Source: Promethearchaeota archaeon (GTDB lineage: Archaea; Asgardarchaeota; Lokiarchaeia; Sigyniarchaeales; SOKP01). From it: a DNA stretch of 64,000 nt. A program made the position numbers and the translations under genes. The stretch is taken from contig JAUVXW010000001.1 in the NCBI GenBank assembly GCA_030603385.1, forward strand, positions 1 through 64,000. The letters run 5' to 3'. The notes beneath the pieces were generated by a model, which made no database searches, was not told the DNA's origin, and saw nothing but the letters and a program-made list of their open reading frames with translations. Positions 28,543-33,723 of this stretch are shown one piece after another. Every line of letters begins with the position of its first letter. Positions within the stretch are counted from its first letter, which is position 1.

Positions 28543-29295
28543 ATGATGACTGAATTTGGTTCGGGATTTAAAGTTTATAGAAATAATACTTATTCTCAAC
28601 TCATTTCAAGTGGAGATAGTACTCTTGATAAGTTGCTCTCTGGGGGATTTCACCGGGACTTAGTCTATTTACTTTATGGAGATAAGAAACTAACAACTAA
28701 TATTTTACTAACGACTTCCGTTATTGTTCAAAAAGCATTTATCAATGGAGGGCTTGGTGAGGGTATTAGAATTGCCTTCATTGATGGAAATAATCGCTTT
28801 AATCCTTATAATGTAAGCAAGTTTGCGGTGTCACAAAACCTATCCCCCCAGAAAGTATTAAAAAACATTCTTATTTCACGAGCGTTTACATGGGATCAAA
28901 TGGTTGAAATTTTGGAGAATAGGCTTTCCATTCTTGAAGATGTGAAAGTTGTGTTAATCTCTGGGATTACAACTCTGTTTGAGGGCTATGAAAAACAGGT
29001 TTTTGAAGATCTGCTAAGAACAATAGATGGAATTAAACAAATGCTCTGGAAAACAAAACCCCTCATTGTTATAACGGCACCTTTACATGAAAATTCTCTT
29101 TTCAGGCCAAAAGGGGGAAAAATTCTCTCGCATTTTGGGAGTGTACTAGTGATGATAAATGATGATGAAAGATACGATGAATATACTCTCGTTCAACATC
29201 CTTATTTGCCTGAAAATCGATTGTTAAAATGGAAGCCACGTACTCCTAAGAAGAAAATTCCTTTAAAAAACGCTACAATAGACTGTTGGTTTTAA
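28543..29295 (+). CDS. Inactivated RadA/RecA-fold protein (PolB2-associated)
   Basis: ISSGDSTLDKLLSGG, AFIDG.N.FNP and NILISRAFT are RadA hallmarks, but the Walker A position reads YGDKKLTT. Confidence 0.85.
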   Translation: MMTEFGSGFKVYRNNTYSQLISSGDSTLDKLLSGGFHRDLVYLLYGDKKLTTNILLTTSVIVQKAFINGGLGEGIRIAFIDGNNRFNPYNVSKFAVSQNLSPQKVLKNILISRAFTWDQMVEILENRLSILEDVKVVLISGITTLFEGYEKQVFEDLLRTIDGIKQMLWKTKPLIVITAPLHENSLFRPKGGKILSHFGSVLVMINDDERYDEYTLVQHPYLPENRLLKWKPRTPKKKIPLKNATIDCWF

Positions 29296-29300
29296 TTATT

Positions 29301-29720
29301 TTATTGTTGCTTTTCTTTCTTTTTGTACATATTAGGGTCCTTTTCTTCCAAAGTTAATTTATCTCCACCATACTGGCTTTTGCGACCTTTATAATAGAGA
29401 GTAGATTCTTCCTCGCAGATTTTATCCCATCCCTCTAATCCTAATTTTTGTATCATTACTGAATTGTAGACTTTAGAATTATGTGGAGCAAAAATCTCAA
29501 AGTTCACAATAGGTTGCAGCATTTCGCAAGGAAAATCACTACATTCATAGCAAAATTCGTGCCCTTTACTTGTAACACATTCATAAGTTTTACATACAGG
29601 GAACTTAAGGATTTGCCCTTTTTTCTCTCGGCATCCCGTACATCCAAAAGATTGCACACCTGGGCATCTCTTACAATAAATTCCACATGGCGCATGCCAA
29701 GTTTTTAAATCTTCTGACAT
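29301..29720 (-). CDS. DUF3795-like Cys-rich protein
   Basis: APCGIYCKRC, CTGCR, C..YEC...KG.EFCYEC.DFPC motifs. Confidence 0.8.
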   Translation of the reverse strand: MSEDLKTWHAPCGIYCKRCPGVQSFGCTGCREKKGQILKFPVCKTYECVTSKGHEFCYECSDFPCEMLQPIVNFEIFAPHNSKVYNSVMIQKLGLEGWDKICEEESTLYYKGRKSQYGGDKLTLEEKDPNMYKKKEKQQ

Positions 29721-29899
29721 ATTCAAAACCAATAATTTGTTTAGTAAGTTTAGATATATACTAAAAATAAAGTTTGTTCTTATTATTTTCTTGTCAATGG
29801 TTTTATGATCAAAAATCAGAAAATTTGTTATGTATTTTCTTTTTAATCAACTGAAACACTTCTTTTCTGGGATTTTACCAAAGATTAGATGTGCAGAAA

Positions 29900-30172
29900 A
29901 TGGGAAGAACAGTTCCTTCTTTTAGACCTGCGTTGGAGCACGAGATTGAAAGTTGGAAAAACTTTAAAAGAGCTCTAAGGCCTGAAGAACAAAAGATATT
30001 TAACACGCTAATGAATTACGCTCGAATTCATGCAGATGCTGGCAGCATGAGCGCACGTCCAATGTTATCAGAAGTATTATTCATCTCCTTTGCAGTTGAA
30101 CAAGAAAAGAGAATTGAAATGCTGGAAGAGAGGGTAAAAGAATTAGAAGAAACGATAAGAGGAAAAGATTAG
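29900..30172 (+). CDS. Small helical PolB2 partner protein (arCOG07300-like)
   Basis: MGRTVPSFR....E...W..FKRALR.E....F..L start; ends 3 nt before polB. Confidence 0.8.
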   Translation: MGRTVPSFRPALEHEIESWKNFKRALRPEEQKIFNTLMNYARIHADAGSMSARPMLSEVLFISFAVEQEKRIEMLEERVKELEETIRGKD

Positions 30173-30175
30173 AGA

Positions 30176-32584
30176 TTGAATTTTCAAGAACAATTTGATG
30201 GGTGGCTTTTAGATGTTTCCACCTATGGTGATGGAGTTATTCTTTGGGTAAAGACAGTAAAAGAACAAAAGGTTGTGAAAATATATCATGACTTCTGCCC
30301 TGAATTTTTTGCTGTACCACGACGGCATGCTGGTAAGGATTTTAAGAGATTAAAACAAATTCTCAAATCTCATCACAATATAAAAGACGTACGAATCTGC
30401 GAAAAATATGTAAAGCTGGAGGAACATGAAAAAACCAAAATATTTGGAGTTTCTGTGGTAAAGCCTTCGGTATTTAAGAAGACAATTAAAGAAATCAATG
30501 AAATTGATCTTTTTACACTATATAACACAGATCTTCCAATCTCTCAGATGTATTTCTATGTAAATGACTTATTTCCCATGTCTTTATGTGGATTCAAGGT
30601 TAAGCTTGAAAAGAAGAAAAAAGCTGATGGACACATTATGCGTTTAATATCGTTAGAATTAAAAGATGACAACGAAGAATTGTTTTATGATTTACCTCCT
30701 CTAAAAGCTGTCTGGTTGGATATTAAAATACAGCAGCATGGAATAAGATCATATTACAACGACCCACTGGCATACGCCGAAGTCAGCATTGTTGAAAAAG
30801 ATGAAAAAGCCAACATTCCAAGGGCAGATGGACAGAGAAAAAGGAAAATTCTGATCGATGAAGCTGATGAGGCGGAAACTATCAAGATGATTAGTAAGGT
30901 GATTGAGAGATTGGATCCCGATATTATTCTCACACATGGAGGAGATGAGTTTGTATTTCCTTACTTGGTTGCACGAGCATCAGTGAATCATGTATCAAAA
31001 GATTTATACTTTTCTCGTACCAGAACGCCACTTAAAAACTGCATTTTTCACCTTTCAGGAAACTCTGATCATTATATGACCTACGGGATAATAATGCGTC
31101 GTTCCAAAACTCAAGTATACCTTACTGGTCGTTTACATTTAGACACTACTACTTATGGGAGTTTGCACTTTAGCGAGGGAAATATACCTGGAGTTATCGA
31201 AGTCGCGAGAATCTCTCGGGTACCTCTACAAAGATTATGTAGGATAACTATTGGTGGTGCTCTTCAATCAATACAATACTATAATGCATATAAACTAGAT
31301 TATCTTATCCCACCTTTTAAGAAGAGTCCAGAAGACTTTCGAAATGGAATGGATCTCATTATCAATGATCGTGGAGGTCATATTTTTGAGCCTATGATCG
31401 GTGTTTTTGATCAGGTGGCAGAACTGGACTTTTCTTCAATGTATCCGTCTCTAATGGCTAAATTTAATATTTCCTCAGAGACGATTAACTGTAAATGTTG
31501 TAAAGATGATGGTACAGGAATTAAGGTCCCTGGCACAAGTTTCCATATCTGTTCTAAGCGAGAAGGAATCATCTCCAAATCCATTAGCTTGCCACTAAGA
31601 AAACGGCTCTATTACAAGGAATACAACAAGACTCATGATGATCTACGGTACAAATTCACTGATATTGCTCTAAAATGGGTACTCGTTGTAAGCTTCGGGT
31701 ATTTAGGCTTCAAAAATGCTCGTTTTGGAAAGATTGAGGCACACCAAACAGTTTGTGCTTTCGCTCGAGAATTCCTCATGCGATCTGCTGAAGTTGCTAA
31801 AAAATATGGATGTAGGGTAGTTCATGGAATTGTTGATTCGATTTATCTACAGGACACAAAAGGAAGAACTCCAGAAGAATTCGAAGTATTAACAAAAAAA
31901 ATTGCCAAAGAAATATCTGAAAGCACTAGCATTCCTATGAGCTGGGATGGGCTTTTCGATATCATTGTATTCCTTCCTTCTCGAGCTGAACCAGATGTTC
32001 CAGCACTCAGTCATTATTGGGGGATAAAAAACGATGGAGAGATTAAGGTGAGGGGTATTGAGGTAAGACGCAGAGACATACCAAAAATTGTAAAGGATGC
32101 TCAGTATGCATTTATTGATATTTTTCAAGGTGCAAAGACTGTTGATGAGTTCGCGAAAAGGATTCCTGAAGCAAAGAAAAAACTCTATGAATACGTAGAA
32201 AGAGTGTATTCCGGTACAGTTACCCGTGAGGATCTTACAATCCGACAGAAGATCTCTCGTAGACCTTCGCAATATAAGGTTAACTCCTATCAAGCTGTTG
32301 CCGCAAGACAATTAGAACGATCTGGTGTTATTGCATCTGCTGGAAAAAACGTTCGATATATAATTCTTAACGCCGATGCAGACCCAGATTTCCCTGAAAA
32401 GAAGGTTATCCTTTCAGATCTATATGATGAAAAAAAGCACAAATACGACAGGAGAAAATATGTTGAATTGTTAAAAAGATCTTTTGAAAACATCCTTCCC
32501 TTCAAATTTCCTGAACTCGAAGAATTATTAAAGTCTGATTATAATAAAAAATCGATTCAAAAAGATCTTTCATGTTTTATATAG
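30176..32584 (+). CDS. polB2: Family B DNA polymerase, PolB2 group
   Basis: Motif A LDFSSMYPS, motif B KWVLVVSFGYLG, variant motif C HGIVDS, KVRGIE.RRRD; exonuclease motifs degenerate (WLDIK, GDEFVFPYL). Confidence 0.9.
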   Translation: MNFQEQFDGWLLDVSTYGDGVILWVKTVKEQKVVKIYHDFCPEFFAVPRRHAGKDFKRLKQILKSHHNIKDVRICEKYVKLEEHEKTKIFGVSVVKPSVFKKTIKEINEIDLFTLYNTDLPISQMYFYVNDLFPMSLCGFKVKLEKKKKADGHIMRLISLELKDDNEELFYDLPPLKAVWLDIKIQQHGIRSYYNDPLAYAEVSIVEKDEKANIPRADGQRKRKILIDEADEAETIKMISKVIERLDPDIILTHGGDEFVFPYLVARASVNHVSKDLYFSRTRTPLKNCIFHLSGNSDHYMTYGIIMRRSKTQVYLTGRLHLDTTTYGSLHFSEGNIPGVIEVARISRVPLQRLCRITIGGALQSIQYYNAYKLDYLIPPFKKSPEDFRNGMDLIINDRGGHIFEPMIGVFDQVAELDFSSMYPSLMAKFNISSETINCKCCKDDGTGIKVPGTSFHICSKREGIISKSISLPLRKRLYYKEYNKTHDDLRYKFTDIALKWVLVVSFGYLGFKNARFGKIEAHQTVCAFAREFLMRSAEVAKKYGCRVVHGIVDSIYLQDTKGRTPEEFEVLTKKIAKEISESTSIPMSWDGLFDIIVFLPSRAEPDVPALSHYWGIKNDGEIKVRGIEVRRRDIPKIVKDAQYAFIDIFQGAKTVDEFAKRIPEAKKKLYEYVERVYSGTVTREDLTIRQKISRRPSQYKVNSYQAVAARQLERSGVIASAGKNVRYIILNADADPDFPEKKVILSDLYDEKKHKYDRRKYVELLKRSFENILPFKFPELEELLKSDYNKKSIQKDLSCFI

Positions 32585-32663: not shown

Positions 32664-32674
32664 TTTAAATATAA
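32664..32674 (+). promoter_or_regulatory. Archaeal TATA box for the putative ncRNA
   Basis: TTTAAATATAA begins about 27 nt upstream of the first helix. Confidence 0.55.
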
Positions 32675-32690
32675 TTCACTCAAATCATAT

Positions 32691-32982
32691 ATTGTTCGCA
32701 TCTAACGGTGTGAAGCAATTCGCATCTCATGTGAATGTCGAGAAGTAGTATTAGCATCTCAATGTGTTGTGCCAATTGAATTACTTTCGAGTAAGACAAA
32801 TTGGAAAAATTGTACTTCCCTCACAGGAAGAAAAATTATATCTTCGGGTATAGAATTGAATAATAGGTTTTCGGATCTGTTATTCAAAACGATTTAATAC
32901 ATTGAAAAACCTATACGAAAGTATGGATTGCTTATACATTGCCGATGAAAACCTTCGGGTTTCATAAGCAGCTTCTCGTCCC
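32691..32982 (+). ncRNA. Large structured non-coding RNA of unknown class
   Basis: At least 11 helices, four UUCG loops, one GAAA and one UAAC loop, many G-U pairs fixing the + strand, nested long-range stems, no ORF of 60 aa or more. Confidence 0.8.
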
Positions 32983-33004
32983 TTTATTCTTTTTACTATT
33001 TTTC
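32983..33004 (+). terminator. U-rich terminator-like tract
   Basis: tttattctttttactatttttc immediately after the closing helix. Confidence 0.45.
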
Positions 33005-33073: not shown

Positions 33074-33616
33074 TTAGGGAAGTGTAATTACTTCAAAAAA
33101 GTCAAATGTAATTATTATTAAGCAGATTAATTCTATGAAAATCCATAGGTTACGTTTTAGACTTCTAATCGCTCCTAGAGGTTTACCGAAATAGTTTATG
33201 AGATTGTATATGAAGATAACTATCCAAGCAGTCCCCAAAAACGCAATAGGAAGAATTAATGTAACAATTTCACGACCCTCATATTTCAGCAAATATTCAT
33301 AGCCAAGAATTGAAAATCCAATAATCACAAGAGTGAAACCAAGGCCAAATGAATATTCTGCGAAAGTTACAAAACGTTTAATTCGCTCATCATTAACATC
33401 TTCTGAATTGGCTTCAAAACTTGCTTTTGAATTAGCAGATACGGAATTAACAAAGAAGATAAATGAAAGCATTAGTAAGAATGTTGAAGTAACAATACCG
33501 TTATCGGGAGGTAATTGCCAAATTAACGCAAGAATTGTTAATACCGCACCAATCATTACAGTGCTTAATGTTATCCAGTCTTTAACATTTATTTTCTGAC
33601 TTTCTTCACGACTCAT
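33074..33616 (-). CDS. Uncharacterised multi-pass membrane protein
   Basis: About five hydrophobic segments; likely start MSREESQK at 33616. Confidence 0.75.
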   Translation of the reverse strand: MSREESQKINVKDWITLSTVMIGAVLTILALIWQLPPDNGIVTSTFLLMLSFIFFVNSVSANSKASFEANSEDVNDERIKRFVTFAEYSFGLGFTLVIIGFSILGYEYLLKYEGREIVTLILPIAFLGTAWIVIFIYNLINYFGKPLGAIRSLKRNLWIFIELICLIIITFDFFEVITLP

Positions 33617-33723
33617 TTTTATTACCTGAAAACCAAAATGAATTAAACTTACTAAAATCTCAGTATTTAAAAATGTTAATATTGCTTTGGACAAAAAAGA
33701 ATTAAAAAAATTAGATCTACTAA

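Follow-up and report, generated by a model that had tools for sequence, protein, structure and literature searches.

The question raised by this locus is which kind of gene occupies a spacer of 490 nt between two protein genes in the genome of an Asgard archaeon. The window, i.e. the whole stretch of 64,000 nucleotides analysed here (contig JAUVXW010000001.1, positions 1 to 64,000), carries at this place a gene for an 802-aa family-B DNA polymerase (PolB; 30176-32584), which matches Pfam DNA_pol_B with only 89 bits, and the spacer extends from its stop codon to a convergent ORF of 206 aa on the minus strand (33074-33694). Asgard archaea represent the archaeal lineage nearest to eukaryotes. To our knowledge, new large RNA folds supported by covariation are rare and almost all of them are bacterial. 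A preliminary description made from the DNA letters had proposed that the spacer harbours an independent, strand-specific gene of a large structured non-coding RNA (ncRNA); the sequence and the hairpins it relied on were found where it had placed them.

Folding of the plus strand from 32694 to 32992 affords a minimum free energy of -89.4 kcal/mol compared to -60.1 ± 4.5 kcal/mol in 100 dinucleotide shuffles (z -6.55), none of which (0/100) folds as well. The reverse complement, in contrast, is unremarkable (z -0.99), and many conserved G-U pairs fit the plus strand only (columns 131/146, 134/143 and 136/141 of alignment A7, see below). Hence, the strand that had originally been assigned from G-U pairs is confirmed. 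A TATA box (TTTAAATA) was read directly at 32664-32671 (+), and transcription is predicted to start near G32694, where the first helix begins. With at most one mismatch, this octamer is present in fixed register upstream of the RNA in 43 of 46 homologous loci, in most of them 52 nt before the model start. The distance amounts to 73-74 nt where the 5' domain carries a 21-nt insertion and to 30-31 nt in loci lacking the 5' hairpin. As the spacing varies with the state of the 5' domain, the predicted start tracks the first structural element in these 43 of 46 loci. A similar TATA box belongs to the RNase P RNA gene of the same genome. At the other end, the pyrimidine tail UCCCUUU is followed by a T run (together 32979-32994, +), a likely archaeal terminator from which the 3' end was deduced. 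The tail, CC(C/U)UU(C/U)UU, lies directly 3' of the closing helix strand P1' in nearly all homologues, and the register of the T tract at 32983-32994 is likewise conserved across homologues. Thus, the TATA box before and the U tract after the RNA, both already pointed out previously, are shared features of the homologous loci, from which start site and 3' end can be predicted. Positions 32694 to ~32992 (+) would accordingly represent the gene of a stable, highly structured and presumably trans-acting ncRNA of ~300 nt.

Two other readings of the spacer were rejected. The reading frames of two 42-aa ORFs overlapping the RNA (32769-32897, +, and 32759-32887, -) are not conserved, with indels of 1 and 2 nt in G002, G069 and other genomes, and substitutions across these ORFs follow base-pairing instead of codons. 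These indels, which are not multiples of three, together with the pairing-driven substitutions rule out a protein-coding small ORF. A cis-regulatory leader or riboswitch was discarded because the next gene (33074-33694) runs in the opposite direction and lies beyond a T-rich terminator at the 3' end of the RNA. Given the fixed TATA register, the conserved pyrimidine/T tail, the convergent downstream gene and the fact that flanking genes are unrelated between loci, we regard it as highly probable that a real, independently transcribed family of structured-RNA genes is at hand. The gene proposed in the preliminary description thereby gains sequence-level support from promoter register, tail, covariation and frame-breaking indels.

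The fold was examined in A7, a MAFFT alignment of 15 sequences of the window's type (short type) from three genera, onto which the twelve helices proposed originally were mapped. In this alignment, 88.1% of cells are paired, compared to 35-44% if the partners are slid by 1-3 columns. A covariation analysis of homologues had been suggested as a check; homologues were indeed found, and compensatory changes occur in 35 of 78 pairs, a value matched by none of 500 shuffles. Eleven of the twelve helices are retained (81-99% paired, with compensatory changes). The twelfth, tgcttat (32929-32935) with ataagca (32964-32970), is paired in only 63.8% of cells, shows practically no covariation and was replaced by a family-wide helix P2 and a longer 3' hairpin (32940-32970), upon which every measure rises. 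The revised short-type structure reaches 89.5% paired cells and compensatory changes in 41 of 85 pairs across the 15 sequences. RNAalifold predicts 108 pairs for the short form, 11 of them compensatory.

The order of parts from 5' to 3' is 5' hairpin, P1, P2, P3, central domain, H14 (between P3' and P2'), H15 (between P2' and P1') and tail. The 5' domain (32694-32736, +) consists of an outer helix (32694-32701/32729-32736) around a GCAA-loop hairpin (32707-32714/32719-32726). The two related 5' hairpins described initially are present in the sequence, but are better read as this single nested domain than as separate elements. In the outer helix, a compensatory change from C-G to U-A is found in two of six sequences (RNAalifold, alignment A2). 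The GCAA-loop hairpin at 32707-32726 arises from the 21-nt insertion mentioned above, a feature of this genome's subclade, and is absent from most relatives, which carry a single 5' hairpin GUUCAnnCC-UAAC-GGnGUGAAC; a few relatives have none or another one. P1 is formed by CGAGAAGU (32739-32746, +) and GCUUCUCG (32971-32978, +); it is 95.8% paired in A7, its 3' strand pairs in short- and long-type alignments alike, and its sequence (CGAGAAG/CUUCUCG) is nearly invariant across all types. In P2, GUAU.AGC (32748-32755, +) pairs with GCU.AUAC (32930-32937, +), specifically 32748-32751 with 32934-32937 and 32753-32755 with 32930-32932 (88.8% paired, 4 of 7 pairs compensatory in A7). Its long-type counterpart is GGUAUUG/CAAUACC, with covariation from G-C to A-U. 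P3 joins UCAAUGUGUUG (32759-32769, +) to 32895-32905 (+), with compensatory changes in 7 of 11 pairs in A7.

P3 opens into the exchangeable central domain, which in the short type spans 32772-32894 (+) and whose helices are 81-99% paired with compensatory changes. It contains a UUCG-apex hairpin (32772-32804) and a four-way junction closed by 32808-32813/32889-32894, from which three hairpins emanate (32815-32830, 32836-32853 and 32858-32885). A pseudoknot between CUCACA in the loop of the first of these hairpins and UGUGA of the 5' domain, as contemplated in the preliminary description, finds no comparative support, the loop not being conserved in the second genus. On the 3' side, hairpin H14 (CUAUAC-GAAA-GUAUGG; 32911-32926, +) is 94.7% paired; its closing pair varies between C-G, U-A, U-G and G-C, and a hairpin occupies this position in all types. 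Hairpin H15 (UGC.GAUGAA.ACC-UUCG-GGU.UUCAU.GCA; 32940-32970, +) is 82.4% paired, carries compensatory changes in 5 of its 12 pairs and constitutes the best conserved block of the family (GCAAUGAA.ACC-UUCG-GGU.UUCAUUGC), on which search model R2 is based. Taken as a model, the RNA may be pictured as P1, P2 and P3 stacked into a rod, with H14 and H15 attached to the 3' strand at two three-way junctions.

Comparison with relatives by BLAST revealed full-length copies of 83-99% identity, as well as many genomes matching at the two ends only. In line with this, alignment of short and long forms displays common ends around a different middle. Judged from these comparisons, the window RNA belongs to a previously undescribed, modular RNA family supported by covariation, with a mini form, the short form of the window (~300 nt), a long form (~360 nt) and a three-unit form (750 nt). 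They share a core of 5' hairpin, P1-P2-P3 stack, the two 3' side hairpins and the pyrimidine tail, the termini being the most conserved parts, and P3 opens into different modules in the long, mini and three-unit relatives. In the long type, other hairpins radiate from a central five- or six-way junction; the mini version was found in one genome (G077). A trimmed covariance model of the long form (R1) retrieved 32 diverse long-type sequences, in whose alignment 93.7% of cells are paired versus 35-44% after sliding and 47 of 100 pairs are compensatory, values not reached by any of 500 shuffles. RNAalifold predicts 109 pairs for the long form, of which 26 are compensatory. The three-unit form is present in seven genomes of the sister genus as a predicted transcript unit of 750 nt comprising three divergent units behind one promoter and before one terminator. 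At locus L161:2016-2766 (G119:C38), and likewise at L162-L166 and L085, it lies downstream of PolB with one TTTAAATA box and one T-run, and its fold gives a z of -6.84. According to the predicted consensus fold (8 sequences, 84% identity), units 2 and 3 would be nested in H15 of unit 1.

Two motif assignments made within the family were withdrawn. A K-turn seen by eye in a long-type internal loop (GCG-AUA-UGAA/UUCA-CGA-CGC) was dropped since the flanking UGAA/UUCA pair in Watson-Crick fashion and covary. Similarly, a T-loop reading of GGUGUUCGAUC was abandoned, as its GUUC pairs with GAAC, with covariation.

Within the searches made, the family appears to be restricted to one family-level clade of Promethearchaeia (Lokiarchaeia-type Asgard), in which the RNA was found in about two thirds of the genomes of two genera and once in a third genus. 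R1 retrieved the RNA from 37 of the 54 genomes searched in the window's genus and, in the same family, from 15 of 40 genomes of the second and 1 of 6 of the third genus, and nothing from six other families of the class. R2, a sequence-only profile of the 3' module (H14 is mis-registered in the MAFFT alignment), matched 65 of 131 genomes of the family and elsewhere in the order yielded two chance-level matches only. Applied to a phylum-wide Asgard sample, it detected the RNA in 12 of the 25 genomes that represented the family and in none of 125 genomes belonging to 26 other families; since scoring was limited to part of the first-look candidates, such absences are provisional. In the two genera, no credible copy exists in five genomes with a completeness of 97-100%, where the weak matches are coding sequence. 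Hence, the RNA is either dispensable or diverged beyond the R1 and R2 models in these genomes. Searches by synteny for remote homologues, downstream of PolB (g18, g19, G085) and downstream of a 146-aa ORF (g20, g21, g22), yielded nothing. Scanning with an 18-mer pattern followed by an R2 filter recovered three true members from metagenomes and none from viral contigs. A number of IMG/VR contigs (L286, L298, L305, L310, L320, L330, L332 and others) do give a match of 22-24 bits to R2 positions 33-89; this sequence of ~50% GC looks like a conserved, unrelated phage coding segment that contains the 18-mer by chance.

Usually, one copy per genome is present. G026:C76 carries two short-type genes in tandem (L006:988-1290 and 1500-1802), ~210 nt apart, each 83-88% identical to the window RNA and each preceded by an in-register TATA box of its own. 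The window's genome (G000) holds a second copy, of long type, on contig C48 (14787-15109, -; locus L067:1501-1823), which scores 158 bits versus 245-375 bits for other members of the genus and is degraded both in the P1 3' strand (AUUCUAU instead of CUUCUCG) and in the 5' hairpin. This copy represents either a decaying paralogue or a contig of a contaminating relative (contamination estimate 7%). In G019, whose short-type RNA is 99% identical to that of the window, a three-unit array (L077; G019:C86:1828-5056) differs hardly at all from the one in G119, a genome of the other genus, and the flank examined contains no PolB; this suggests bin contamination or recent transfer.

With the family thus delineated, its function can be approached by weighing the available readings. 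Our best guess, offered tentatively and with low confidence, is that the RNA acts in trans as the scaffold of a ribonucleoprotein (RNP). The near-invariant core (P1, 5' hairpin, H15 and tail) would then form the binding platform for one or more proteins, and the variable centre would serve as a peripheral or specificity module that could be swapped, shrunk, enlarged or multiplied in evolution. Based on the patchy distribution, the role of such an RNP would be accessory rather than one of essential housekeeping. A scaffold is favoured over a catalyst because invariance in the long type resides mainly in helices (37 of 200 paired versus 7 of 125 unpaired columns) and because the sequence of P1 is nearly constant although it is a plain helix. 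Sequence-invariant helices are typical of protein recognition, but this invariance may also just reflect the shallow depth of the clade. From the gene neighbourhoods examined, no candidate protein partner emerges. In a wider formulation, which we consider possible but rather doubtful, the RNA would be the founding member of a new, Asgard lineage-specific class of large functional RNA, either the subunit of an unknown RNP machine or a new ribozyme, with activity residing in the core and specificity in the centre.

Taken on its own, catalysis would mean that the multi-junction fold builds an active site for RNA processing or self-processing, e.g. for the release of units from the three-unit precursor. 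The size of the RNA, its multi-way junctions and its many GNRA and UUCG loops indeed recall large ribozymes, and the 750-nt form with one promoter and one terminator in seven genomes could well need processing. We nevertheless hold a ribozyme to be unlikely. With only 7 of 125 unpaired long-type columns invariant, no conserved single-stranded core is evident, and conservation is lowest in the central domain, the place where one would look for a catalytic core. Moreover, similarity to Rfam ribozymes is lacking, and the consensus fold of the three-unit form nests units 2 and 3 in H15 of unit 1 instead of presenting three separable units.

Fast remodelling of the centre, tandem duplication and the decaying second copy would be in keeping, too, with an accessory role, conflict-related or other, for instance that of a guide or decoy RNA or of an RNA regulating a defence or mobile system. 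This interpretation, to which we assign a small probability, draws on the detection of the RNA in about two thirds of the species of two genera and its non-detection in several complete genomes, on the fast turnover indicated by domain swaps, the G026 tandem duplication, the degenerate G000:C48 copy and varied sites, and on the finding that, 3' of PolB, the gene is either present or missing as one clean piece before the next gene. Yet the gene is usually single-copy and syntenic within subclades, the viral contigs contain no true match, and no gene for a transposase, reverse transcriptase, Cas protein, TnpB or IscB adjoins it in the loci examined, whose neighbours include PolB, GyrI-like and GNAT genes and a membrane-like ORF. 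A variable, guide-like end is missing as well, both termini being the most conserved parts. A transposon guide RNA (TnpB/IscB omega-RNA) in particular was rejected on account of the lack of such neighbour genes, the usual number of one or two copies and the conservation of both ends.

A further proposal, made by analogy, is an RNA-only architectural molecule that might self-assemble into multimers in the manner of ROOL, GOLLD and OLE, for which a preprint reports patchy distributions and no known protein partners (bioRxiv 10.1101/2024.12.08.627333). The large ornate fold of the window RNA offers many tetraloops able to make inter-molecular contacts, and fused multi-unit versions exist. At 300 nt, however, it has half or less of the size of these RNAs, conserves no palindromic kissing loop and shares neither sequence nor covariance-model similarity with them, which renders such multimers quite improbable.

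The position of the RNA directly behind PolB2 invites the idea that it is an RNA cofactor, i.e. a primer, template, tether or regulator, of PolB2 or of the cassette formed by PolB2 and an inactive RadA. The RNA is oriented as PolB and starts ~110 nt past its stop codon, and all short-type and three-unit loci as well as one long-type locus, in two genera and ~22 genomes, lie directly after PolB. Against such a cofactor, the PolB-adjacent block also keeps the flanking gene orf206a and a GyrI-like gene, so that adjacency can be inherited synteny. Additionally, ~28 long-type loci are found elsewhere, most of them between a 146-aa ORF and a Zn-ribbon ORF and the remaining ones next to GNAT, gelsolin, methyltransferase or radical-SAM genes. 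In G003 and G006, orf206a comes immediately after PolB, the RNA being encoded at another locus. No such RNA is present downstream of PolB in genera g18 and g19 or in G085, the latter being without a detectable copy anywhere, and in the 100% complete genome G083, which contains the RNA, no orthologue of PolB2 turned up at E ≤ 1e-50. As the RNA also possesses its own predicted promoter, a PolB2 cofactor appears highly improbable. The location directly downstream of polB2 emphasised in the preliminary description is therefore correct for the window, but does not define the family, most long-type homologues lying elsewhere; with RNA at other loci, PolB without RNA and RNA without a PolB2 orthologue, the linkage is best read as inherited synteny and not as obligate.

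Two observations on the neighbouring genes may be added. In the window, a same-strand cassette upstream of the RNA (28531-32584) comprises a Rad51/RadA-like ORF, small ORFs and the family-B polymerase; the Rad51/RadA-like ORF encodes 254 aa, with Pfam Rad51 covering the first half only, and a RadA-like/PolB cassette recurs on metagenome contig L275. Besides, a conserved ORF of 128-146 aa without Pfam family (L009:2021-2458, -, with homologues in 17 loci) precedes most long-type RNA genes by ~150 nt, in the same orientation. Since it also occurs in G085 and G096, both without detectable RNA, no link with the RNA is indicated.

Known RNA families were assessed with the 4227 models of Rfam 15, including group I/II introns, snRNAs, snoRNAs, Y RNA, vault RNA, OLE, ROOL, GOLLD, HEARO and riboswitches. 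At gathering thresholds, neither the window nor seven homologous loci gave a match. At E ≤ 10, four variants produced only chance-level miRNA, sRNA or snoRNA matches of 10-21 bits versus thresholds of 46-100, those of the window RNA being confined to miRNA models; the long-type, three-unit and second-genus variants retrieved nothing in Rfam. The earlier statement that no known family is recognisable, and specifically no RNase P RNA, SRP RNA or tRNA, was thereby upheld. RNase P RNA (RF00373) was rejected since the genome's own copy is located at G000:C26:124759-125079 (129.4 bits) and the window has no covariance-model match. The P4 pseudoknot of RNase P is formed by the conserved CR-I (GNAANNUC) and CR-V (ACNNNANNNNGNNUA) strands flanking P2 and P3; in the window RNA, only 3-4 nt separate P2 and P3 on the 5' strand, and the consensus contains no CR-I/CR-V strands. 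SRP RNA (RF01857) was likewise dismissed, as it has no match in the window and 27 relatives hold their SRP RNA away from the window-RNA homologue (202687 versus 1972641 in G006, C21 versus C35 in G019, C10 versus C14 in G002). SRP helix-8 motifs are not visible in the window RNA either. In the 94%-complete assembly of G000, RF01857 did not find an SRP RNA, whose gene is probably missing from this assembly. The SRP RNAs detected in 27 of 40 relatives score 46-84 bits, all below the Rfam gathering score of 96.5, and hence the archaeal SRP model of Rfam under-scores this clade. ARAGORN found no tRNA or tmRNA in the whole window. A likeness of CUUCUCGGCCUUU and GUAGUA to the 5' part of U2 snRNA was set aside as coincidence: the long type does not conserve GUAGUA, and a U2 model match did not appear. 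A full-text search of published literature returned no description of the window RNA. Altogether, a very divergent version of a universal RNA (RNase P/MRP, SRP or snRNA-like) missed by the covariance models is largely refuted and hardly credible, for although ~300 nt, a closing helix and a multi-domain layout recall RNase P and SRP RNAs and the G000 assembly is without detectable SRP RNA, a bona fide RNase P RNA of 129 bits sits on contig C26, SRP RNAs of relatives occupy other contigs or positions than the window-RNA homologues, P4-type pseudoknot strands, CR-I/CR-V and SRP helix-8 motifs are not visible, and four variants find nothing in Rfam at E ≤ 10.

An RNA of 300-750 nt with ~15 helices, its own predicted promoter, a modular build and no Rfam match is thus added to the inventory of an Asgard lineage. 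If it proves to be an RNP component or a ribozyme, a new molecular machine would be added to Asgard biology. The mini, short, long and fused triple forms on one core provide a natural experiment in RNA domain swapping, and the shared core with varied centres makes the family attractive for structure determination and partner pull-down, the generality of any lesson being limited by the narrow and patchy distribution.

Among known systems, the archaeal RNase P RNA (type A/M/T, RF00373) resembles the window RNA in its length of ~300 nt, its stand-alone gene with strong TATA promoter, a terminal helix P1 that closes a multi-domain, multi-junction fold, and a conserved core with peripheral domains gained or lost by lineage. 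In contrast to RNase P RNA, which is universal, the window RNA is patchy within one family and has neither P4 pseudoknot nor CR-I to CR-V nor a covariance-model match. Archaeal SRP (7S) RNA (RF01857) is similar in length and stand-alone gene organisation, but folds into a long rod that bears helices 6 and 8 at the tip, is encoded at separate loci in the relatives and yields no model match for the window RNA. Y RNAs and vault RNAs share with it the pairing of 5' and 3' ends in a conserved stem, a variable interior, a pyrimidine- or U-rich 3' tail and paralogous variants. The window RNA is, however, at least three times larger, far more branched and without match to the Rfam Y_RNA or vault models, and, unlike in the Y RNA/Ro RNP, no Ro60/TROVE gene (PF05731) was found in the 94%-complete genome G000. 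OLE, ROOL, GOLLD, raiA and HEARO likewise combine an ornate, covariation-supported fold with orphan function and narrow or patchy spread and were also found by comparative genomics. These RNAs are bacterial or from phages, mostly 200-800 nt long and covered by Rfam models of their own, none of which matches the window RNA. Compared to these large orphan bacterial ncRNAs, the window RNA is distinguished by its archaeal (Promethearchaeia) origin, its exchangeable central module and its fused three-unit form.
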